NCBI GenBank assembly: GCA_018141785.1
Contig: CP073341.1
Location: 1,465,422-1,529,421, forward strand
DNA from: Candidatus Paraprochloron terpiosi LD05
GTDB taxonomy: Bacteria; Cyanobacteriota; Cyanobacteriia; Cyanobacteriales; Prochloraceae
Length of the DNA: 64,000 nucleotides
Reading direction: 5' to 3'
This document shows, piece by piece, positions 13,059 to 51,120 of this stretch (the stretch's first letter is position 1; each line of letters begins with the position of its first letter). Made by a program: the position numbers and the translations under genes. A model generated the notes under the pieces. The model searched no databases. It was not told the origin of the DNA and saw only the letters and a program-made list of their open reading frames with translations.

Positions 13059-14147
13059 ATGAAGAGAGATACTGTATATATTGCTATTACTAACCATGGA
13101 TTTGGACATGCTGTTCGCGCTGCTTCTGTTGCTCAAGCTATTAAGGAGCTGAATCCGGATCTACTACTTATTCTGATTACAACTGCCCCTCGTTGGCTAC
13201 TAGAGTCTTATATTGAAGCAGATTTTATCCATCGTCCCCGTGCTTTTGATGTGGGGGTAATCCAAAAAGATAGCTTAACCATGGATAAAGCTGCTACATT
13301 AGCTGCAATGTCGGAAATTCGTGAACGACAGGAACAGATTATTGCCTCGGAAGCTGACTTTATCCTTACCAACGATGTAGGGTTAGTTTTGGCGGATATT
13401 CCTCCTTTAGCTCCTCCTATTGCAAGAGCTGCTGGGGTACCATGTTGGATGATGAGCAACTTTGGCTGGGATTTTATCTATGGAGACTGGGGCGAAGAAT
13501 GGGAGGAAATGGCTAATTGGATTGCCTCCTGTTATGGACAATGTCATCGTCTCTTTCGTCTACCTATGCACGAGACCATGAAGGCTTTTCCTCAGATTAT
13601 TGATACAGGATTAACTGGGAGTACTCCTAAATATAAAGAAGCACAATTGCGGGCTGATTTTAACCTCACTGCACCTAAGGAAAAGACTGTTTTGCTCACT
13701 TTTGGGGGTTTTGGATTAGCGGAAATTCCCTATGAAAATCTTGCCAAATTTCCGACTTGGCAATTTATTACTTTTGATGACAGAGCACCGGATTTAGCTA
13801 ATTTAGTGAAAGTGACGGACCGTAAATATCGACCAGTGGATTTTATGCCTTACTGCTGTCGGGTAGTTTCTAAGCCAGGGTACAGTACCTTTGCTGAAAG
13901 CTTGCGTTTAGGGGTTCCCATTGTTTCCCTCCTGCGAGAAGGTTTTGCCGAATCTTCCTTATTAATAGAAGGGATTCGGGACATAGCTTACCATCAAATT
14001 ATCACCTCTGAGGAGTTTTATCAAGGAGATTGGGATTTTCTCAACCAACCCTTATGCCCACCCCGTAAAACAGTTCCTTTTCCATCCAATGGAACGGAAT
14101 TTATCGCCCAAACTGTGGTTGAATATTTCCGAACTTATAAATCATGA
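13059..14147 (+). CDS. GT-B fold glycosyltransferase-like protein
   Basis: 362 aa. N-terminal IAITNHGFGHAVRA and C-terminal SKPGYSTFAE resemble GT1/GT28-type enzymes. No specific family assigned. Confidence 0.45.
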   Translation: MKRDTVYIAITNHGFGHAVRAASVAQAIKELNPDLLLILITTAPRWLLESYIEADFIHRPRAFDVGVIQKDSLTMDKAATLAAMSEIRERQEQIIASEADFILTNDVGLVLADIPPLAPPIARAAGVPCWMMSNFGWDFIYGDWGEEWEEMANWIASCYGQCHRLFRLPMHETMKAFPQIIDTGLTGSTPKYKEAQLRADFNLTAPKEKTVLLTFGGFGLAEIPYENLAKFPTWQFITFDDRAPDLANLVKVTDRKYRPVDFMPYCCRVVSKPGYSTFAESLRLGVPIVSLLREGFAESSLLIEGIRDIAYHQIITSEEFYQGDWDFLNQPLCPPRKTVPFPSNGTEFIAQTVVEYFRTYKS

Positions 14148-14163: not shown

Positions 14164-14667
14164 ATGACAGCAGTTCATACCTCACCTACCATTGATTTAA
14201 TCGCCCAGGACGACGTCCGTTCTGTCTTAGAACAGCAAAGAGAACAAAGTAAAACATTGACCACCAAACTTAATATTCTATTTGTGGTTAACGGTGCCCT
14301 ATTCACAAGTTTGACAATTTCTCGTCTAATGTATATACCCAGCATTTTTAGTGTAGCAGAAATCCTGGGATTTTTAATGAATTTTACATTACTAATCAAC
14401 GCTTTTCTTCCCCGTCAGATAGCGGTGACTCCCAATTTGACAGACAATAAATTCTTAGAAGGGTATTTGGACTTGCTGCCAGAAGAATATCAATTAAAAA
14501 TGATGGTCAATCTGATTCAGACTTATAATACCAATAAACAGCGGCTCGATGATGTTTCTCAATCCCTTACCTATACAGCTTACGTTACTTGGATGGTAGC
14601 CTTTATAATAATGCTACACGTCTTAGCCATTTATTTTATCCCGGCATTGCTTATAGATCAGTTATAA
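14164..14667 (+). CDS. hypothetical membrane protein
   Basis: 167-aa ORF with three hydrophobic helices. No recognised motif. Confidence 0.4.
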   Translation: MTAVHTSPTIDLIAQDDVRSVLEQQREQSKTLTTKLNILFVVNGALFTSLTISRLMYIPSIFSVAEILGFLMNFTLLINAFLPRQIAVTPNLTDNKFLEGYLDLLPEEYQLKMMVNLIQTYNTNKQRLDDVSQSLTYTAYVTWMVAFIIMLHVLAIYFIPALLIDQL

Positions 14668-27801: not shown

Positions 27802-28140
27802 CTATATACCTAGCCAACCTCGCAGAGACTGCTCAAGCTGTTTGGCGTCTTCTTGGGCCAACCTACCAATCACCTTTATGACTAAGGTTTCATGCACCGT
27901 ATACAATCCTCGCTTAACAGCCGTAGCCACATTCAGTCCTGCTGCTGACCATTCGGACAGCACAAACTCTCCTTCAAGTAGCGATTTTGTTCTGCTTGTT
28001 AGTGGCACGATCAGAATATCTTGGGAAGAATGTGGGGCATTCACTACAATTGCAGGTCTAACTTTGGAGTTTGACAAGTTAGAGAATGGATAACGAACTA
28101 AAACAATGTCGTGTTTAGAGCAACTCGGCATACACATCAT
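27802..28140 (-). CDS. PemK/MazF-family type II toxin
   Basis: DIVLVRYPFSNLSNSKVRPAIVV...ILIVPLTS is the MazF/PemK signature. Alternative starts at 28137 and 28131. Confidence 0.75.
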   Translation of the reverse strand: MMCMPSCSKHDIVLVRYPFSNLSNSKVRPAIVVNAPHSSQDILIVPLTSRTKSLLEGEFVLSEWSAAGLNVATAVKRGLYTVHETLVIKVIGRLAQEDAKQLEQSLRGWLGI

Positions 28141-28780
28141 CCTCGGTATTATCCCACACTTTATTTAATGATTCTTGGCTGACTTGCTGCCAGAATAAAT
28201 ATTGAATAGCTTCTTGATTTACACTCGTTGTCTCATTGATAAACCGTATAATTTCTTTAAGGATCGATGTGAAATGAAACTTTCCCATAGACCTAAAGAT
28301 AGGATTTGAATCTATTTTCTTAAAATCTTTACGTTTACTCTTATCGCAATGTGCAGCGTCCCCATAAATGTAAATATCCATTAATTCTCTATTGGTAAGT
28401 TGCTTTTGACCCGATTCTGATTCTAAGATTTTAGATGTTCTATATCCCAGTGAAGTGTCACTAATAGTAACATTGGAACTCTTGTCAAGGTAGTAATTAA
28501 GTGCATACCTTAGCTTATTAAACCTGTTTTTCAAATCTTGTGGAACATTTATTCTAGAGTACAACTCTGACATTTTGTCGAATGAAATAGCATCCTTCTT
28601 CTGAATGAACATCCTGATGTTCAAAATATCTGCCTTCAAGGACTTTTCATCAGGCAACTTTTCTGTTTTTTTCATTCCATTAGCATCCGTTTCTATAGTA
28701 ACAGACAGCTCTGACTGAAGTAAATCGATAATTTCAGCAGCTTTCTCATTAAATAATTCTAGAGTTTCGATATCAGTCAT
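28115..28780 (-). CDS. hypothetical 221-aa protein in the antitoxin position upstream of mazF
   Basis: The ORF overlaps the mazF start by 14-26 nt. It looks AT-rich and predicted helical, with no recognised motif. Confidence 0.5.
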   Translation of the reverse strand: MTDIETLELFNEKAAEIIDLLQSELSVTIETDANGMKKTEKLPDEKSLKADILNIRMFIQKKDAISFDKMSELYSRINVPQDLKNRFNKLRYALNYYLDKSSNVTISDTSLGYRTSKILESESGQKQLTNRELMDIYIYGDAAHCDKSKRKDFKKIDSNPIFRSMGKFHFTSILKEIIRFINETTSVNQEAIQYLFWQQVSQESLNKVWDNTEDDVYAELL

Positions 28781-30117: not shown

Positions 30118-31269
30118 TTATTCATTAACAGTAAGCAGACGAGATGGGATGAAACGATTCATCCACTGTTTTAAATAAGCCCGATTAGCTTGCTGCTGTT
30201 CCTCCTCAGTAGTATCTAAAGGATAGGGAGCTAATCCCTTTATTGCAGCAGTAGTGACGCAAAACATGGACTTCTGGAAACTCTGACAAATTTGCACCCG
30301 CAAGTCATCTTCCTCCCGCTCACTTTTCTCATATATTTCTTCCAGATACTTTGGTAAATAATGGCGCATATCCTGCATTAATAAGGTTGGGGGAATACCG
30401 GAACCCCCAATAGGTAAGGGATCAGCATATAGAGCACCATAGTTAAACAAGGAGGGATCAAAGGGAATTTGATATGCTTGAGCATTATAGGAAATTGTCC
30501 CCGGAAAAGGGGTACCTCGGAAGAAAATAGCTTCTACATAAGGTACTGCTGTATCAGGAAGAAATGTCAATCCCGCTGCTTTAGGAATTAGATCGTAAAC
30601 CTCTCCCCTAATTTGAACTTCATAGGTAATGGGTAAATTAGCACCCGCTACCAAACCATCTAGTATATGCTGCACTACTTGAGGAATGGATTTAATTTCC
30701 CCTCTGTCGTACCTATCAGACAAGGAGATGAAAATATCGCTCATCACTCGCCAAAATTGTCCTAAACCCTTATAGTAAGCCATCTGTCGCACTTGTTCTG
30801 GCAAAAATTCTTTAAAGATTTTGTGCAGCCCCAACATGAACAAATTACCTTTCCATTTAGCAAGAATCGCCCGATTTGCTGCTGCTTTAAATGTTGGTGT
30901 ATCTAAATAAGCATCTAAACCACCACCTCCGTGCCAAAACATGCCTTTCATGCAATATTCCGCGTATTCAAAATTGATGCGTTCGTGCCACCAGTGCCGC
31001 AGTAACTTGGATAAATTTACTTCCCCATTGAAATATTTAAAAAAGGGAAAGAGAACTAAAAATTGATTTTCAGCAATGTAAATTAAATTGCGAGAATAAG
31101 CATCTAAAACAATGCCGTAACTTTTGAGAATCCCCACCACTTCCAGGACATTCTCCGGGGAATCCTTTAACAAGGCTGCCCCAGTTTCTAAGCGTTGGAT
31201 ATACTCTTCTAACGGGTGTTGGTCAAGATTTTCTTTGATACTTACCATTTTAATTATTCCTGATTTCAA
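30118..31269 (-). CDS. CO2 hydration protein of the NDH-1 CO2-uptake complex (ChpX/CupB or ChpY/CupA)
   Basis: LEVVGILKSYGIVLDAYSRNLIYIAENQFLVLFPFFKYFNGE, WWHERINFEYAEYCMKGMFWHGGGGLDAYL and IPPTLLMQDM. The size (383 aa) and the absence of a downstream cupS lean towards ChpX, but this is not decidable by eye. Confidence 0.85.
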   Translation of the reverse strand: MKSGIIKMVSIKENLDQHPLEEYIQRLETGAALLKDSPENVLEVVGILKSYGIVLDAYSRNLIYIAENQFLVLFPFFKYFNGEVNLSKLLRHWWHERINFEYAEYCMKGMFWHGGGGLDAYLDTPTFKAAANRAILAKWKGNLFMLGLHKIFKEFLPEQVRQMAYYKGLGQFWRVMSDIFISLSDRYDRGEIKSIPQVVQHILDGLVAGANLPITYEVQIRGEVYDLIPKAAGLTFLPDTAVPYVEAIFFRGTPFPGTISYNAQAYQIPFDPSLFNYGALYADPLPIGGSGIPPTLLMQDMRHYLPKYLEEIYEKSEREEDDLRVQICQSFQKSMFCVTTAAIKGLAPYPLDTTEEEQQQANRAYLKQWMNRFIPSRLLTVNE

Positions 31270-40811: not shown

Positions 40812-42788
40812 ATGGTAGTCCGCAAAACGGCGGCTCCCCCGACTCCTTGGTCGAGAAGTTTAGCGGAACCTAAAATAGATGAGAGTGCCTACGTTCATTC
40901 CTTCTCCCTTGTTCTTGGAGATGTGAAAGTAGGAAGCGGGGTGCTAATTGCCCCGGGAACTTCTATTAGGGCTGATGAAGGCACTCCCTTCCATATTGGC
41001 AATGGGACCAATATTCAGGACGGAGTGGTGATTCACGGACTGGAGCAAGGTCGGTGCCAGGGGGATGATGGTCAGGATTACTCCGTCTGGATAGGCAAGG
41101 AGACCTGCATTACCCACATGGCTCTGATTCATGGTCCAGCTTATGTTGGGGATAACTGCTTTGTTGGCTTTCGTTCCACGGTATTTAACGCCAAATTGGG
41201 ACATGGCTGTATTGTGATGATGCACGCCCTCATTCAGGATGTGGAAATTCCCCCAGGGAAATACATCCCCTCTGGGGCTGTGATTACGAATCAGCAGCAA
41301 GCGGATCGGTTACCGGACGTGACTGATGCTGATCGCGGTTTTGCCAGTCATGTGGTGGAAATTAATGAAGCTTTGCGAGCAGGCTATCAGTGTGCCAAAG
41401 ATACCGCTTGTATTGCTCCGATTCGCAATGAACTGAATAGTTCTAACCCCCGCCAAAATGGTACTAACTATATAAATTCGATGGATTCTATGAACAGTTT
41501 ACAGGTCGAAATCAAGCAACAGGTAAGAAATCTCCTCCAATCAGGATATAAAATCAGTACGGAACATGCTAATAAACGTCGGTTTAAAACCAGTTCTTGG
41601 TTATCTGGTCCCAGTATTATCGGTTCTCGGGAAGACCAAGTCATGGCTGAGTTACAAAGAGCTGCTGGAGAACACCCAGGAGAATATGTCCGTTTGCTGG
41701 GAATAGACCCAAAAGGGAAGCGGCGGGTTCTGGAAATGATTATTCAACGACCTGGGGATGGTGAAGTTCAAAGTTTTAATGGACTTTCCGCACCTACAGT
41801 TAATTATAGCAGTGTGGCTGCCAGCAATAATGGCAGTTTAAATGGGGGCATACCAGAGCAAGTATCTAATCTTCTCGCTCAAGGATACAAAATCGGCATC
41901 GAACACGCCAATAAACGTCGTTTCAAAACCAGTTCTTGGCTTAGTGGACCAGTGCTGCAAGGTCAAAATAGTCAAGTACTCAGAGATTTAGAAGGGATTT
42001 TGGCAGAATATTCAGGAGAATACGTCCGCTTGCTGGGCATTGACCCGAAATCCAAGCGACGGGTATTAGAGCAAGTAATTCAAAGACCAGGAGAAAGCCA
42101 AAGTTTAGGTAATGGTTCCACCACAACTTCCAATTATAGCAGTTACAACCAGGGAAATACAGCACAAGGTGGTTTGAGTGCAGAAACAGTCCAACAGGTA
42201 CGCTCCCTCCTATCTCAAGGATACAAAATTGGTACGGAACACGCCAATAAGCGACGCTTCAAAACCAGTTCTTGGCAAAGCTGTTCCCCTATTGATAGTA
42301 ACCGAGAGTCGGAAGTAATTGCCGCATTGGAAGCTTGCTTGCAGGAACACCAAGGAGAGTATGTCCGCCTCCTAGGTATTGACTCAAAAGCCAAGCGACG
42401 GGTGTTAGAGAAGATTATCCAACGTCCTTCTGATAATGGCACTGTGATCCAGGAGAGAGCAACAGCAACAAGTTACACTGCGACAGTTCCTAGTAATAAT
42501 GGCAGTGTTGGGGTTGAAACTAGCAGTAGCTTGAGTAGCGATGCAGTCCAACAGGTACGCTCTCTCCTGTCTCAAGGGTACAAAATTGGTACAGAACACG
42601 CCAACAAGCGTCGTTTCAAAACCAGTTCTTGGCAAAGCTGTTCCCCCATTGAAAGTAACCGGGAATCAGATGTAATTGCAGCATTGGAAGCTTGCTTGCA
42701 GGAACACCAAGGAGAGTATGTCCGTTTGATTGGTATTGACTCAAAAGCCAAGCGGCGGGTGTCGGAAACCATTATCCAAAGACCTTAA
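40812..42788 (+). CDS. ccmM: carboxysome assembly protein CcmM (gamma-CA-like domain plus four RbcS-like SSUL repeats)
   Basis: The N-terminus has gamma-carbonic-anhydrase left-handed beta-helix motifs. There are four repeats of QV(R/S)[24 protein letters not shown]...GEYVRLxGID.K.KRRV (about 41517-42785). Repeats 3 and 4 are about 90 percent identical at the nucleotide level with a 357-nt period. Confidence 0.92.
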
Positions 42789-42943: not shown

Positions 42944-43423
42944 AGGAAACCATCTATGCTGCCAAAAGCACGCGAAGCATACCCCAATGAAAGATAATGG
43001 TCACAGATAACTTTACTAATGCTGTAAAAGTTTATTATTTGCCACCAATCCTACCTATTAGTAATAATCGCATTTACGTGAGTGGCGATGTGACAATTCA
43101 TCCTTCTGCCGCAGTAGCTTCTGGAGCAGTCCTCCAAGCTGCTCCTAACAGTAAAATTGTCATTGGTGCTGGAGCAATAGTCAACAGGAAACCACCTATG
43201 CTGCCAAAAACAAGCAATGCATACTATATTACATGATAAAATTTTTTATAACTTTTATCATGCAGGAAAAGTTAATAAACTGCCACAAATTCTACCTATT
43301 AATCATAATCGCATTTACGTGAGTGGCGATGTGACAATTCATCCTTCTGCCGCAGTAGCTTCTGGAGCAGTCCTCCAAGCTGCTCCTAATAGTAAAATTG
43401 TCATTGGGGCTGGAGCAATAGTC
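42944..43423 (+). repeat. tandem duplication (~241-242 nt unit) covering the ccmN upstream region and its first ~55 codons
   Basis: aggaaaccaTctatgctgccaaaagca (42944) matches aggaaaccaCctatgctgccaaaaaca (43186). The 120-nt blocks 43063-43182 and 43304-43423 are nearly identical. A third partial copy of taatgctgtaa...ccaatcctacctattagt lies at 42818-42860. Confidence 0.85.
42997..43236 (+). pseudogene. truncated duplicate of the ccmN 5' end
   Basis: The 79-aa ORF contains NNRIYVSGDVTIHPSAAVASGAVLQAAPNSKIVIGAGAIV, identical to CcmN residues, and then runs into the duplication junction. Confidence 0.5.
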
Positions 43424-43927
43424 GGTATGGGAGCAGTCTTAAATGCTTATGACGGCGCTCTGGAAATCGAAAGCGGTGCAGTCTTGGGAGCTGGGGTTTT
43501 GATAGTAGGTGCGGGAAAAATCGGTGCTAATGCCTGTATTGGCACCGCCACCACCATTTTTAATGGAGACATTCCTCAGGGGGCAACATTAGCTCAGGGT
43601 TCCCTCATTGGCGATCCATCTCGTTCCATTACCGAGTCAAGGGAGACAAAAACAGATCAAGATGAAGTAAAAGAGGAGTCTGAGGGAACCTCAGAAGGGA
43701 AAGAAGATGAGAACGCGGTATCCCCAGAACCAGAAGTTATCGATAATGAAGCGTCAGCAGAACCGGAAGTTAATATTGAAGTGTCTAAAGATAAAGCGGA
43801 ACCATCTTCTTCTGAGCAGCAGCAGCCAAATGCACCAGTGGTAGGTAAAGTTTATATTAACCAACTGCTACTTACTCTTTTTCCTCAAGGACAAAATTTA
43901 AACAATCGCCAAAAACAGGTACCATGA
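43217..43927 (+). CDS. ccmN: carboxysome assembly protein CcmN
   Basis: Hexapeptide-repeat N-terminal domain, an acidic linker, and a C-terminal encapsulation-peptide-like VYINQLLLTLFPQGQ. The ATG lies inside the duplication junction. Confidence 0.8.
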   Translation: MHTILHDKIFYNFYHAGKVNKLPQILPINHNRIYVSGDVTIHPSAAVASGAVLQAAPNSKIVIGAGAIVGMGAVLNAYDGALEIESGAVLGAGVLIVGAGKIGANACIGTATTIFNGDIPQGATLAQGSLIGDPSRSITESRETKTDQDEVKEESEGTSEGKEDENAVSPEPEVIDNEASAEPEVNIEVSKDKAEPSSSEQQQPNAPVVGKVYINQLLLTLFPQGQNLNNRQKQVP

Positions 43928-44349: not shown

Positions 44350-45768
44350 ATGGTACAAACCAAATCAAGCGCCGGGTTTAAGGCTGGAGTACAGGACTAC
44401 CGCCTAACCTACTACACCCCCGACTATACACCAAAAGATACGGATCTTCTGGCAGCATTCCGCGTCACGGCTCAACCGGGGGTACCTCCTGAAGAAGCTG
44501 GAGCTGCTGTAGCAGCAGAATCTTCTACTGGAACTTGGACAACGGTTTGGACAGACGGACTGACGGATCTGGATCGCTATAAAGGTCGTTGTTACGATAT
44601 CGAGCCGATCCCCGGAGAGGATAATCAATTTTTTGCCTTCATTGCCTATCCCCTAGACTTATTTGAAGAAGGCTCCGTCACCAACATGCTCACCTCCATT
44701 GTGGGTAATGTCTTTGGTTTCAAAGCCCTGCGCGCTCTGCGTCTGGAAGACTTGAGGGTTCCTGTGGCTTACCTGAAGACCTTCCAAGGCCCTCCCCACG
44801 GTATTACCGTTGAGCGGGATAAGTTGAACAAGTACGGTCGTCCCCTGCTGGGTTGTACCATTAAGCCCAAGTTGGGTCTGTCCGCTAAAAACTATGGTCG
44901 GGCAGTTTATGAGTGTCTCCGGGGTGGTTTAGACTTCACCAAAGACGACGAGAACATTAACTCCCAACCCTTCATGCGTTGGCGCGATCGCTTCCTCTTT
45001 GTTCAAGAAGCCATTGAAAAAGCTCAAGCTGAAACCAACGAAATTAAAGGTCACTACTTGAACGTCACCGCTCCCACCCTGGAGCAAATGATGGAGCGAG
45101 CTGAATTCGCCAAGGAAATCGGCACCCCCATCATTATGCACGACTATCTCACTGGGGGTTTCACTGCCAACACCACCCTAGCTCGCTGGTGTCGAAGCAA
45201 CGGCCTTCTGCTCCACATTCACCGCGCTATGCACGCCGTGATTGACCGTCAGAAAAACCACGGTATGCACTTCCGAGTCTTAGCTAAGTGCTTGCGCATG
45301 TCTGGGGGCGATCACCTTCACTCCGGTACCGTTGTGGGTAAGCTGGAAGGTGAGCGGGGCATCACCATGGGCTTCGTTGACCTAATGCGGGAAGACTATA
45401 TCGAGGAAGATCGTTCTCGCGGTATTTTCTTCACCCAAGATTGGGCTTCTATGCCAGGGGTAATGCCTGTAGCTTCCGGTGGGATCCACGTTTGGCACAT
45501 GCCCGCTCTGGTAGAAATCTTCGGCGATGACTCCTGCTTACAGTTTGGTGGTGGTACTCTCGGTCACCCCTGGGGTAATGCTCCCGGTGCAACTGCTAAT
45601 CGGGTTGCTTTGGAAGCTTGTATTCAAGCTCGTAACGAAGGTCGCAGCTTAGCGCGGGAAGGTAATGACGTTATCCGGGAAGCTTGTCGCTGGTCTCCAG
45701 AATTGGCTGCTGCTTGCGAACTATGGAAGGAAATTAAGTTCGAGTTTGAAGCCATGGATACACTCTAA
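44350..45768 (+). CDS. rbcL: RuBisCO large subunit, form IB
   Basis: Full-length RbcL, including [23 protein letters not shown]. Confidence 0.97.
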
Positions 45769-45854
45769 TCCAAGGTTAGCTGTTAGTTTTTAGGAGTTAA
45801 TACCTAATTACTAACAATTCTGCTCAGGGGTCTCTAGGGAGACGGGAAAGAATA

Positions 45855-46259
45855 ATGTATCCTAAAAAAGTTGCTCAAGATACGGCTAAGGTTCTACAAA
45901 GTTACCTTACCTATCAGGCGGTATGCACTATCATAAACCAACTAACTGAAACTAATCCTGGTAAAGCTATTTGGTTGCGACAATATTCTGACGTCAATAA
46001 GATTCAGGATGGAGAAGCATATCTCGAAAAACTTATGTCAGAAGACAAAGAGTTAGTTATGCGGATAATGAAAGTACGGGAACACTTAGGTGAACAAGTG
46101 CTGGAGTTTCTACCGGAGATGGTGATTACTGGCATTAAGCAGGCTAACTTGGAACACCGCCGTCGGCTTTTGGAACGTCTGACCCAGTCCCCCGACCCTG
46201 ACCTCAACCCCAAGGCGAATAACTCCAACTCGGATGTTGATCCGCCTGAAAACGAATAA
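45855..46259 (+). CDS. rbcX: RuBisCO assembly chaperone RbcX
   Basis: Position between rbcL and rbc[22 protein letters not shown] is the RbcX core. Confidence 0.85.
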
Positions 46260-46288
46260 TTGTTAGTTTATCCTCAAGGAAGCAGCCC

Positions 46289-46627
46289 ATGAAAACTTTA
46301 TCTAAAGAGCGCCGTTACGAAACTCTCTCCTATTTGCCCCCCTTAACGGACCAGCAGATCGCTAAGCAGATCGAGTACATGATCGACCAAGGGTTTATTC
46401 CCGCAGTTGAGTTTGAAGAAGACCCCAAACCTACCGATCACCACTGGACACTGTGGAAGTTGCCTCTCTTTCAAGCCCGTAGCGCTCAGGACGTTTTAAA
46501 TGAAGTACGGGAGTGTCGTTCCGAGTACTCTAATTCTTACATTCGGGTGATTGGTTTTGACAATATTAAGCAATGCCAAATGGTGAGCTTTATCGTTCAT
46601 AAGCCCAGCAACAGCCGCCGCTACTAA
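46289..46627 (+). CDS. rbcS: RuBisCO small subunit
   Basis: [37 protein letters not shown]... Confidence 0.95.
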
Positions 46628-46650: not shown

Positions 46651-46700
46651 GGGGAGAAAGGGTAACATTTACCTTTTCTCTCCTTTCTCTGTTTCTCTGT
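46651..46700 (+). terminator. candidate intrinsic terminator of rbcLXS
   Basis: 14-bp stem (46651-46664 pairing with 46670-46683, two G-U pairs, 5-nt loop) followed by the T-rich tttctctgtttctct. Confidence 0.5.
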
Positions 46701-46750
46701 GTACTCTGTGCCCTCTGTGGTTAAAACAAAAATTCTATAGTAGTATTTAG

Positions 46751-47548
46751 TTAATTAGTGTTATCCTTCATATTAAGTTTTTGACAAATTTGCTCCCACT
46801 CTTTTTTCAGAGTTGGATTTAACTTATCAAAGTCAGTTTTTGAAAGCAGGATTCCGGCACTAGACTTCGCAGCCTCATATTCAACAAACGCATCAAGTAC
46901 AGTTGCAATAGCATCGGAAGTATCTTGATCTGATTTACGTAAAAAATGGGAATGAAGCTCATTAAATATATGCTCAGAGCGAGACCGCAAAATTTCCAGT
47001 CTCAGCCATTCACCAATAATATTCTGGGAGAAAACTAACAGTGTTATCCACGTAAGCAGCTCCAAATTATCGTGAGGAATAGAAAAAACTAAGATCCAAG
47101 CCACAAGATATACTAAAATGATGATTCGCTTTCGATTCAGCATTCTTGCAGCGATTTTATGACTGAAGAACGCATTCTCCATGGTATTTGCTCCAAGGCG
47201 TTGCACCGATGGAGAATATTCATTGTTATAGTAGAGAAATGTTCGATCTAGAGAAAGCGCTACCCCAAATGAATCTGAAAGCAACTGTTTTCTTCTCTTT
47301 TGTTCTGCTCGTGGTAGTAGGTACAAGCTAGATGCCTGAGAAAGGGCGAATTGTATCAAGACCAAGACAAGAAAAATTGCCCGCAAAACACCTGACCCTG
47401 ACTTTCCAAGGATTAGTGTCGAGTAGGGCATAACGAACGACAAGGCTACATTGGTCCAGAAGAGTCTATTTATAATTGACCCAATTTTTTCGATCGGAGC
47501 ATAATACTGCGAGATTTCATCAACCTTTGTTGTATCTGTATCATTCAT
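46751..47548 (-). CDS. four-TM putative effector (S-4TM-like) partnered with a SMODS nucleotidyltransferase
   Basis: 265 aa. Four hydrophobic helices (LFWTNVALSFVMPYSTLILG; VLRAIFLVLVLIQFALSQASSLYLL; IIILVYLVAWILVFSI; LELLTWITLLVFSQNIIG) and a helical C-terminal tail. ATGA overlap with the upstream gene. Confidence 0.55.
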   Translation of the reverse strand: MNDTDTTKVDEISQYYAPIEKIGSIINRLFWTNVALSFVMPYSTLILGKSGSGVLRAIFLVLVLIQFALSQASSLYLLPRAEQKRRKQLLSDSFGVALSLDRTFLYYNNEYSPSVQRLGANTMENAFFSHKIAARMLNRKRIIILVYLVAWILVFSIPHDNLELLTWITLLVFSQNIIGEWLRLEILRSRSEHIFNELHSHFLRKSDQDTSDAIATVLDAFVEYEAAKSSAGILLSKTDFDKLNPTLKKEWEQICQKLNMKDNTN

Positions 47549-48330
47549 AGTGAAGGTACGATTTTTTGTATTTCGGACTTGGCTCTGTCAATCATATTAC
47601 TTTCTTCATATTCCTTCGCTTGTTTTGCGTATCTCTTTGCCCTATCAACCATAGTTTTGATATACTCAGGAGTATCATATCCACAACTAAATACTGACCA
47701 AAACAAGTAAAAGTAGTCTTTCAGAGCCGAGCATCCCCAAAACGACGTATTAATAATGTATTGTTCCATTGAGAATGATGGGAACGGGTGCTTGTTGCGA
47801 GCATTCCAATATTTCACCAAACGAACTAATGGTTTGATTAGATAGTTGTTCTCCTTATTCTTGTTCTGAAGCGATTGATTAATCCCGGATGGATCAGTGC
47901 TTATCCATTCACTGTAAGATGAGGCAGGCGAGGGAATATAGTAACCGTAATTGTTGATTGCGGGAACTAGCTCAAAGTTGATATGATTCAAAGAAAGAAC
48001 AATTGTGGGGTGGGATTGGTATATTTCTGACGTCGAATATTTTTCCGTTACAAAATTCTTGAGATGATTAAGGTAAGTTTGCGGTTTTTTCTTACCATCA
48101 GATGTATCAAAAATGACCATGTAATCAATATCTGAATTACCGTCTGCTTTGCGCGGAAGAATTGTACCACGAGTGCTAGAGCAAAATTGAAAGTGACCGA
48201 TCACTTGATTGCCAAAGTACAAATTCAACCTAGATGAAAGTGTTTTGATGGAAGTAGAAATACTTGATTTTTCTGAATCTGATAGGACAAGGTCGCTTGC
48301 TAAACTTGTGAGGTGTGAATTTACTGACAT
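47545..48330 (-). CDS. SMODS-type (CD-NTase-like) nucleotidyltransferase
   Basis: The layout is typical of SMODS proteins: N-terminal LSDSEKSSISTSIKTLSSRL; the NTase core FCSSTRGTILPRKADGNSDIDYMVIF; a second acidic strand NFELVPA; then STDPSG...NKNKENNYLIKPLVRLVKYWN. The conserved Gly of the G-S motif is Cys here. Confidence 0.6.
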   Translation of the reverse strand: MSVNSHLTSLASDLVLSDSEKSSISTSIKTLSSRLNLYFGNQVIGHFQFCSSTRGTILPRKADGNSDIDYMVIFDTSDGKKKPQTYLNHLKNFVTEKYSTSEIYQSHPTIVLSLNHINFELVPAINNYGYYIPSPASSYSEWISTDPSGINQSLQNKNKENNYLIKPLVRLVKYWNARNKHPFPSFSMEQYIINTSFWGCSALKDYFYLFWSVFSCGYDTPEYIKTMVDRAKRYAKQAKEYEESNMIDRAKSEIQKIVPSL

Positions 48331-48374
48331 ATTTTTTGAGTGTTATTTATATCTTGAGAGTATGACTTCAATAT

Positions 48375-48403
48375 ATTATAACTAAAGCAAGTAAATTTGG
48401 CAA
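48375..48403 (-). promoter_or_regulatory. candidate sigma70-type promoter of the SMODS/4TM operon
   Basis: Minus strand: TTGCCA (48398-48403), a 17-nt spacer, then TATAAT (48375-48380). The -10 lies about 45 nt upstream of the ATG at 48330. Confidence 0.4.
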
Positions 48404-48452
48404 CTAGGGCACACTGTTATAATATTATAATTTTTCCATCCCCAACTCCAAC

Positions 48453-48810
48453 ATGAGCCAACCAACCATCCTCCAGCCTGACACCAGACAAACTATATTT
48501 TCCCTACTAGCAGAATTGAGCCAGGAAAAACTGTTACCCAGCCTCTTTCAGCACTGCTGTGGTGAGTCTGATGGTAGCCTTAACCAGCGCCCTACCAGAA
48601 ATCATTGCTACCCCACTCACTGCTCCCACGGCAATTCTAGCTATTATGGCAGCAAACTCAGTGGAAGAAATGGAAGGTTCTGCCACTTCAGAAGAAATTC
48701 TGATGACGGTTTTAGTGGCCATCGCCCTTTCTTCTTTCCTCACAGGTTCTTTCTTGCAACCAGATATCCTCAATTTTAGCCATACTGCCAGGGGCGATCG
48801 CAAACTCTAA
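48453..48810 (+). pseudogene. possible N-terminal remnant of a SulP-family anion transporter (frameshifted, truncated)
   Basis: Two overlapping frames join to MSQPTILQPDTRQTIFSLLAELSQEKLLPSL / VSLMVALTSALPEIIATPLTAPTAILAIMAANS...EEILMTVLVAIALSSFLTGSFL, resembling the first helices of SulP proteins. It stops after about 120 codons. Weak call. Confidence 0.3.
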
Positions 48811-48874
48811 TAATTGCGAAGCAACCGCGAAGCGTCCCAAACCTGAGCTAGAGGGTATTGGCTACTACTTTGCC

Positions 48875-50663: not shown

Positions 50664-51120
50664 TTCTATTTACTCCAATAAGTGGGTAAAATATCCCCAT
50701 TGGTTAAGATTATAGCAAGAGGCAGAAGCTCACTGGGAGTAAAAATGTAATAAATTCCTGTATCCGGCTCTAAAATTCGCTGTTCTAATAATGCCAAAGT
50801 TTCCAAAGCCGCAATAATTAACAATTGAGCATCTTTTTCTCGGGGCTGGTTTTGGGATAAATTGACTCTAGCAACCTCACCACTGGGTAAAACTATTGCG
50901 CTTAGGGAGAACTGAGCTAGAAGTGCGAATATACCAATTTCCAGTATCGGAATTAAAAGTCTGCTGGATCAGAAAGTCTAAGGTTTCCAGTGCATTGAGG
51001 ATCAGATATTGAGCTTCTGTCGGTTCCATCAGGGATTCATGGGTCTTTCTACTTGAGCAATCCTACTGTACCGTCAATTAATGATAGCATAGTGAGAAAG
51101 GAAAAAACAGCGATCAAACC

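Follow-up and report, generated by a model that had tools for sequence, protein, structure and literature searches.

The sponge Terpios hoshinota has Candidatus Paraprochloron terpiosi LD05 as its dominant cyanobacterial symbiont (PMC9298193). Directly behind the core rbcLXS operon of this bacterium, two genes on the strand opposite rbcS raise the question of whether they form an antiphage signaling system and, if so, whether such a system can still signal in this genome. This question was addressed by computational analysis of a 64,000-nucleotide stretch of contig CP073341.1 (positions 1,465,422 to 1,529,421, referred to as the window and numbered from its first letter). The genes encode a cGAS/DncV-like nucleotidyltransferase (CD-NTase), designated the cyclase, and a predicted membrane effector. 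The two genes are a genuine type I cassette of CBASS, the antiphage signaling system that is based on cyclic oligonucleotides, acquired as accessory DNA, with the LD05 copy probably being either signaling-impaired or a dead relic. As an initial annotation made from the letters alone had proposed, the two open reading frames (ORFs) are translationally coupled, with the stop codon of the cyclase gene overlapping the start codon of the effector gene in the ATGA at 47548-47545:

47545..48330, minus strand: cyclase gene (CD-NTase/SMODS), 261 aa, from Pfam, PADLOC, and AlphaFold2 (AF2)/Foldseek
46751..47548, minus strand: membrane effector gene, 265 aa (PADLOC '4TM' CBASS effector), from PADLOC PDLC00719
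48375..48403, minus strand: sigma-70-like promoter TTGCCA-17-TATAAT, upstream of the cyclase gene, with 11/12 consensus matches

The promoter, also anticipated in the initial annotation, was the top promoter-like match in the scanned region and is near-invariant across the four alleles of the cassette described below. It is a plausible working promoter for the cyclase-effector pair; the scan overall was not enriched over shuffled sequence (9 sites versus 7.1 expected).

The family of the cyclase was established directly. All of the motifs from which SMODS/CD-NTase identity had been proposed (FCSSTRGT, SDIDYMVIF, FELVPA, and LVKYWN) are in the translation, and Pfam SMODS (PF18144) matched residues 1-158 over profile positions 1-164 of 164 (E=4.9e-39; 134.6 bits, cut-off 26.5), while the PADLOC cyclase model PDLC00769 matched over the full length (residues 1-260, E=7e-106). 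The NCBIfam equivalog model CBASS_cyclase_b (NF041117) gave 88.5 bits, under its cut-off of 200, and judged by this score the protein is a relative, not an equivalog, of that family. The AF2 model, built from 121 sequences, had a predicted local distance difference test score (pLDDT) of 94.7 and a predicted template modeling score (pTM) of 0.89. When it was compared with the PDB by Foldseek, the top 40 matches were all CD-NTases, with CdnD, CdnB, CdnC, and CdnE structures at template modeling scores of 0.70-0.79. The nearest structure was Pseudomonas aeruginosa CdnD (PaCdnD; 6p82, TMq 0.76-0.79, E=1.5e-11), followed by the CdnD enzymes of Enterobacter cloacae and Salmonella, Bacteroides fragilis CdnB, and Escherichia coli CdnC. 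The model thus predicts a cGAS/DncV-like two-lobe fold, with a Pol-beta core and a helical C-lobe, and its structural neighbors suggest clade D, B, or C in the Whiteley classification (clades A-H).

The best fold matches, PaCdnD (6P82, 6P8J) and E. cloacae CdnD (7LJL, 7D4O; TMq 0.74-0.79, E down to 1.5e-11), are nonetheless only 15-20% identical to the window cyclase, which is ∼40-120 residues shorter than the solved CdnD enzymes and has Cys for the Gly of their G-S motif. Furthermore, the system that PaCdnD serves is of type III and includes HORMA and TRIP13 partners, none of which is present here. The enzyme had been described as short, a description that did not survive comparison with its own family: homology searches returned 2239 matches, and with lengths of 261-262 aa in nearly all of the top 120, a length of 261 aa is the family norm and indicates no truncation. 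The residues that bear on catalysis are as follows:

48181..48183, minus strand: codon 50, TGC (Cys), replacing the Gly that is invariant in the hG[GS] motif of the homologue alignment
48124..48132, minus strand: codons 67-69 (D-I-D), the metal-binding acidic pair; D67 and D69 are invariant and aligned to the DID of PaCdnD
47971..47973, minus strand: codon 120, the Glu of FELVPA, a putative third catalytic acidic residue, invariant in 120/120 homologues

The family profile aligns FQFGSSTRGT with FLTGSYARYT of PaCdnD (the GS motif) and SDID with KDID (the catalytic DID), and the Asp pair mutated in PDB entry 6p8j, the D62N/D64N mutant of PaCdnD, aligns with D67/D69. The strand carrying E120 corresponds in the profile alignment to '..vDAVPA' of PaCdnD, and E120 is the likely equivalent of the third catalytic acid. 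The acidic triad D67, D69, and E120 is therefore present in the window cyclase and invariant in the 120 homologues.

Membership of the effector in a CBASS-associated family was likewise found directly, by a match to the PADLOC '4TM' effector model PDLC00719 (E=2.6e-87; effector residues 7-260, profile positions 2-256 of 256). The family comprises 572 representative clusters (at 50% identity) in a library of 1.84 billion proteins and occurs in many phyla and on plasmids. Pfam contains models for the S-4TM and SLATT effector families of Burroughs et al. (2015). The likeness to S-4TM effectors seen in the initial annotation found no counterpart in Pfam, where neither the effector nor 64 family members gave an S-4TM or SLATT match at E<=10, only scattered chance-level matches; NCBIfam gave nothing for the effector.

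The two families also occur together elsewhere, as was seen directly in distant phyla. Of 9 loci examined on plasmids or in viral collections, 8 have the two genes side by side, in both gene orders and at identities down to 26-42%. These eight loci, on a Bacillus plasmid, Lactococcus pMRC01, and six IMG/VR contigs, place a 261-266-aa nucleotidyltransferase beside an effector homologue, and all eight have an intact FGS motif. Thus, the pair is shared by plasmids and prophage-like contigs of distant phyla. At the ninth locus, on Rhizobium sp. NXC24 plasmid pRspNXC24a (L068 2558-5654), an effector homologue (40% identical) is flanked by two other CD-NTases, one a DncV-like enzyme of 479 aa and the other a 'CBASS oligonucleotide cyclase' of 283 aa; the combination of two cyclases with a single effector is unusual.

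Among the close parallels are unannotated pairs on plasmids. The classical conjugative plasmid pMRC01 of Lactococcus lactis (NC_001949.1 21584-23131; L070 3209-4756) encodes a nucleotidyltransferase of 261 aa (50% identical) and a hypothetical protein of 252 aa, and across pMRC01 and the Bacillus cereus plasmid NZ_CP117423.1 a nucleotidyltransferase of 261-266 aa (43-50% identical) precedes a hypothetical membrane protein of 252-257 aa (27-35%), with intact FGS. Unlike the window pair, the plasmid pairs are on conjugative or large plasmids beside insertion sequence (IS) elements, a recombinase, and a superinfection-exclusion gene. The pMRC01 pair sits between an ISS1 transposase and a recombinase. 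No experimental phage-resistance test of these pairs was found in the literature on pMRC01 and the plasmid pairs; a lactococcal type I CBASS that has been tested is a different, SLATT system.

In the window, the PADLOC cyclase and effector models match the two overlapping ORFs, and the neighbors of the cassette (rbcS, a SulP-family remnant, and genes for a DUF2996 protein and an alpha/beta hydrolase) include no Cap2/Cap3 or HORMA/TRIP13 genes, in agreement with the minimal type I CBASS that had been proposed. Type I CBASS with a 4TM effector (PADLOC PDLC00769 and PDLC00719) has the same two-gene operon of a CD-NTase and a multipass membrane effector without Cap2/Cap3 or HORMA/TRIP13. One such system, EcCdnD12-4TM, gave at least 10,000-fold protection of E. 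coli that needed the catalytic Asp pair (Richmond-Buccola et al., bioRxiv 10.1101/2023.05.21.541620); it is likened to the window pair by its architecture. By analogy with functional relatives, phage infection would lead the 261-aa CD-NTase to make a cyclic oligonucleotide, which would bind the cytoplasmic parts of its partner, a basic loop at residues 79-138 and the C-terminal helices. The effector would then assemble in the inner membrane and permeabilize it, so that the infected cell would stop before phage release.

In order to learn whether the cassette is a fixed part of the locus, the region behind rbcS was compared with that of relatives. The loci compared in detail were two from Prochloron sp. 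OZ240666.1 (L003 and L004), one from Ca. Paraprochloron terpiosi SP5CPC1 (L005), one from a fourth genome (L071), and two Logan contigs, SRR18788998 (L001) and one identical to the window (L002). Presence of the cassette, followed directly in this way, is patchy and shifting:

46735..48858: segment without counterpart in SP5CPC1 (L005), which has 798 unrelated bases instead; flanks align at 81-96% identity
46745..48545: 1.8-kb unit common with Prochloron sp. OZ240666.1, where it is ∼6.4 kb further from rbcS (blastn to L004 16914-18717, 94.6% identity)
48453..48810, plus strand: SulP-family transporter remnant, divergent, consisting of a frameshifted and truncated 5' end; collinear with L003 and L071

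Among 64 rbcS loci of species-representative genomes, the pair was found in just one other, that of Prochloron sp. OZ240666.1. In OZ240666.1 and L071 the 1.8-kb unit is on the far side of the DUF2996 and hydrolase genes, beside SulP/STAS transporter fragments. The cassette is thus absent from SP5CPC1, displaced by ∼6 kb in two relatives, and absent from the other rbcS loci, and it is accessory DNA in a rearrangement-prone spot rather than a housekeeping unit. The initial annotation had named three findings that would speak against it, namely, a lack of SMODS similarity, a partner without transmembrane helices, and conservation of the pair at this position as a housekeeping unit; all three were looked for and none was obtained.

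The boundaries of the cassette carry no tRNA, integrase, or terminal repeats. A self-mobile element is disfavored, given that such marks are missing and that the unit travels with a SulP gene fragment, and because of this joint movement rearrangement or recombination is likelier than transposition. The rbcS-cassette interval of L004 (L003 12656-17528) contains genes for RRXRR/HNH endonucleases of 287, 137, and 441 aa as well as an IS605 OrfB fragment, none of which is in the window; such elements may have driven local rearrangements. SP5CPC1 (L005 6771-7568) and OZ240666.1 (L004 ∼13380-13440) share coding-looking sequence upstream of DUF2996 (reverse strand ...EGEVVAIDIETGAYALGENAVIAARQ...). 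Window positions 48811-48858 are only a degenerate stub of it, and thus the cassette junction coincides with a deletion.

The composition of the cassette was as the initial annotation had described it. Its GC content is 38.2%, compared to a window mean of 43.9% (standard deviation, 2.5), and it is the lowest-GC 1.58-kb stretch of the 64-kb window. It also contains no HIP1 site, as had been stated; at 20 sites per 64 kb only ∼0.5 would be expected in 1.65 kb, so that this absence is uninformative and was rejected, as underpowered, as a sign of foreign origin.

The state of the LD05 copy was evaluated from four alleles, those of the window, L001, L003, and L071. The replacement of the conserved Gly by Cys in the G-S motif, to which the initial annotation had drawn attention, is real, falling at the position that aligns with the GS of PaCdnD. 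Gly occupies position 50 in every aligned homologue (120/120) as well as in the 8 distant loci, and Cys is seen only in the window and the identical Logan contig L002. A GGC→TGC change at 48183 gives Cys50; the codon is GGC in L001, L003, and L071, and when polarized with L003 the Cys is derived. The window cyclase lacks the Gly of the hG[GS] nucleotide-binding motif, which bears on its activity and not on its ancestry. At the equivalent site of human cGAS, the G212A/S213A double mutant is a standard catalytically inactive control (PMC7431009). The caution that had been voiced about catalytic competence was well placed, as Cys50 is private to this genome among the 120 homologues and sister alleles are broken. 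L001, which over 11.3 kb shares 99.67% identity with the window, retains Gly50 and is frameshifted by a +1 insertion at codon 102 (∼48027); in L071, a TGG→TGA change creates a stop at an invariant Trp (W142*). L003 is the sole intact-looking allele among the four. With three alleles damaged, by Cys50, the frameshift, and W142*, Cys50 would be one of three independent hits on the cyclase.

Sequence differences are concentrated in the cassette. Of 37 differences between the window and L001 over 11.3 kb, 34 lie within 47030-48207, in the cassette, and many of the L001 variants, several of them in effector codons 34-56, are common to L071, which indicates that the alleles are mosaics from exchange between strains. 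Local hypermutation, for instance, of the kind caused by diversity-generating retroelements, was rejected as the source of the 34 differences, given the mixed mutation spectrum and the variants shared with L071. The cyclase had a ratio of nonsynonymous to synonymous substitution rates (dN/dS; Nei-Gojobori, four alleles) of 0.54-0.83 and the effector one of 0.82-3.1, compared to 0.01-0.22 for six flanking genes. Nonsynonymous changes accounted for 34/49 variable codons in the cyclase and 38/43 in the effector, where ∼78% would be expected under neutrality, and the changes fall at otherwise conserved cyclase positions, while many variable effector codons are radical changes in hydrophobic segments. 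Between the closely related L003 and L071, dS of the cassette (0.024-0.035) matches that of the flanks (∼0.025) and dN of the cassette is 2-10 times higher. Between the window and L003 or L071, cassette dS (0.014-0.07) is well under that of the flanks (0.13-0.43), which suggests sharing of the cassette at a later date than the split of the genomes. L003 and L071 are near-identical in their SIS and M50 protease genes (dS ∼0.025), with rbcL at a dS of 0.118; the latter comparison suggests exchange of the rbc region, too, between lineages. The substitution patterns point to a roughly neutral rate of evolution of the cassette in this clade; most likely it was acquired and exchanged among these symbionts, and purifying selection on it is now weak or absent. 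Because Cys50 replaces an invariant Gly and evolution is near-neutral, a signaling-impaired or dead relic is the most likely state of the LD05 copy, and phage protection by it is doubtful, given the decay in the clade.

Several observations weigh against decay. Neither ORF is broken in this genome, and the promoter is conserved. What cGAS offers as a precedent is a double mutant and not a change of the Gly alone. The frameshift and nonsense alleles are known from metagenome assemblies and not from reads, and the imbalance of three cyclase lesions versus none in the effector is not significant, having a chance of ∼1 in 8 with genes of equal length. A dN/dS near 1 can also arise from mixed purifying and diversifying selection, which is common in defense genes. 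Values above 1 for the effector (2.8 and 3.1 in two pairs; P=0.056 and 0.027, the latter the best, uncorrected for six comparisons) could reflect diversifying selection. Finally, a cassette dS below that of its flanks indicates recent exchange, which is odd for junk.

These same observations make it possible, although less probable, that the pair is a fully working type I CBASS in which Cys50 is tolerated or alters the choice of nucleotide and an arms race with phage accounts for the high dN/dS. Translational coupling of the intact ORFs, the remaining catalytic residues, all of which are intact, and the recent strain exchange evident from mosaic alleles and low dS would fit such a system. It is harder to reconcile with a Gly that is invariant in every homologue and distant locus aligned, with the frameshift or stop in two sister cyclase alleles, with a cyclase dN/dS of 0.5-0.8 from changes at otherwise conserved positions, and with SP5CPC1, which has no cassette at all.

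What the effector could contribute to either reading depends on its architecture. Kyte-Doolittle hydropathy gave two strong hydrophobic segments (residues ∼54-78 and ∼139-158) and two weaker ones (∼22-46 and ∼165-183):

47315..47485, minus strand: hydrophobic segments 1 and 2 (residues ∼22-46 and ∼54-78), with GKSGSG between them, from hydropathy
47135..47314, minus strand: conserved positively charged loop, residues 79-138, a candidate cytoplasmic ligand-sensing region, from the alignment
47000..47134, minus strand: hydrophobic segments 3 and 4 (residues ∼139-158 and ∼165-183), from hydropathy

As to the four transmembrane helices originally predicted, all four segments are kept in the family-averaged hydropathy and the charges obey the positive-inside rule; the AF2 monomer (pLDDT 83.7, pTM 0.82) departs from the prediction in making residues 13-94 one unbroken helix. 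As a result, the hairpin of transmembrane helices 1 and 2 derives from hydropathy and not from the model, in which helices 115-155 and 163-203 are joined by a short turn. Short turns, neutral or acidic in charge, connect the segments, and basic residues flank the 79-138 loop and the C-terminal domain, a charge pattern that fits an N-in/C-in four-span topology with all conserved soluble motifs in the cytoplasm. In a 64-sequence alignment, the conserved soluble parts are PRAE..RRKQ, T103, YYNN106-109, E124, and the C-terminal helical part. Within the loop (net charge, +2.5) T103, Y106, Y107, N108, N109, and E124 are invariant, and a ligand-sensing role of the loop may be proposed.

No solved structure resembles this protein in the searches made: a PDB sequence search returned only a chance match to ATP synthase subunit c, and Foldseek against the PDB gave no fold neighbor better than E=0.5. 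CBASS transmembrane effectors are thought to oligomerize and disrupt the inner membrane, and by likeness to Cap15, Cap13, Cap14, and Cap16 this is the most likely mode of action of the window effector as well. It differs from those four proteins in being all-helical, with no recognizable sensor domain, no Pfam family, and no fold match in the PDB. A more far-reaching proposal, of low probability, is that the partner represents a structurally new class of nucleotide-gated membrane effector, all-helical and 255-270 aa long, that senses its ligand through the T103/YYNN106-109/E124 loop and C-terminal helices instead of SAVED, a beta-barrel, or STING, and that in host-restricted Paraprochloron diversifying selection (dN/dS up to 3) maintains it even as the cyclase is repeatedly knocked out. 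If so, either symbionts are selected to silence suicidal signaling or the effector has been recruited to a cyclase-independent use.

The last of these, retention of the effector for a holin-like role, a role in membrane stress, or a response to another input signal, is very improbable. Its ORF is intact in 4/4 alleles, three of which have damaged cyclases, and dN/dS exceeds 1 in some pairs. However, the lesion counts are too small to carry this conclusion, many of the codon changes are radical ones within hydrophobic segments, and homologues across the family are always beside a cyclase in the loci examined.

An equally slim chance attaches to a Panoptes-like decoy, in which a minimal cyclase would constitutively make a nucleotide that holds the effector shut, until phage sponges or nucleases remove the nucleotide and release it. 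A minimal cyclase without a sensor domain is indeed paired here with a membrane effector, and there is precedent in minimal CRISPR polymerases (mCpol) with transmembrane effectors (PMC12657218, PMC11974786). However, the enzyme is a SMODS Pol-beta nucleotidyltransferase and not a Palm-domain mCpol, and PADLOC places both genes under CBASS. In addition, L001 and L071, in which the cyclase is broken and the effector ORF open, should under such a logic suffer toxicity unless their effectors are dead as well. The reading of the pair as a nucleotidyltransferase of toxin-antitoxin type (MNT/KNTase or AbiEii-like) plus membrane partner, and not a signaling system, is effectively refuted by the full-length Pfam SMODS and PADLOC matches and by Foldseek neighbors that are all CD-NTases: weak NCBIfam matches to a CCA-adding enzyme and ANT(9) reflect only the shared Pol-beta fold, profile and structure searches found no MNT/KNTase-type match, and no HEPN or AbiEi partner is among the neighboring genes.

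With a decayed type I CBASS cassette as the favored interpretation, the type of system itself is already known, a textbook accessory defense cassette that will not surprise specialists, and the decay of this copy is the new point. The genome paper on LD05 makes no mention of phage (PMC9298193). Four near-identical genomes provide an allelic series (intact, Gly→Cys, frameshift, and nonsense) that could show whether host-restricted bacteria shed suicidal signaling and that offers a ready-made test of the G-S Gly alone. The effector family is large and widespread, including on the lactococcal plasmid pMRC01, yet has neither a Pfam model nor a solved structure. The interest of the locus, which is modest, thus rests on the natural series of alleles that this host-restricted symbiont offers and on the uncharacterized effector fold and not on the system type.

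The surroundings of the cassette are those of a carbon-concentrating/carboxysome locus:

30118-31269, 40812-42788, 43217-43927, and 44350-46627: ChpX/Y CO2-hydration protein, CcmM, CcmN-like protein, and rbcLXS, respectively
46651..46683, plus strand: terminator-like hairpin, a 15-pair stem followed by a T-run, where rbcS and the effector gene converge

CcmM of the window has a hexapeptide-repeat domain and four RbcS-like repeats. The hairpin was assigned to rbcS and not to the cassette because its sequence is kept in L004 and L005, where the cassette is missing at this site. The ORFs at 48453-48810 gave no Pfam match, and the SulP remnant there was identified by comparison with L003 and L071. 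The transporter fragments of L071 (7264-8758) carry Pfam Sulfate_transp and STAS, and the L003 copy is also in pieces; given the carbon-concentrating locus, the remnant might be a decayed BicA-type bicarbonate transporter.

Further along the window, two adjacent small ORFs on the minus strand (50666-50824 and 50877-51029; 52 and 50 aa) are similar to each other (..ALETL..L.Q......DTG..YI.T.S..LP..) and may be a tandem pair of small paralogues. Two more low-GC ORFs, at 28115-28780 on the minus strand and 14164-14667 on the plus strand (33.9% and 37.1% GC; 221 and 167 aa), which had no Pfam match, may be further accessory genes.

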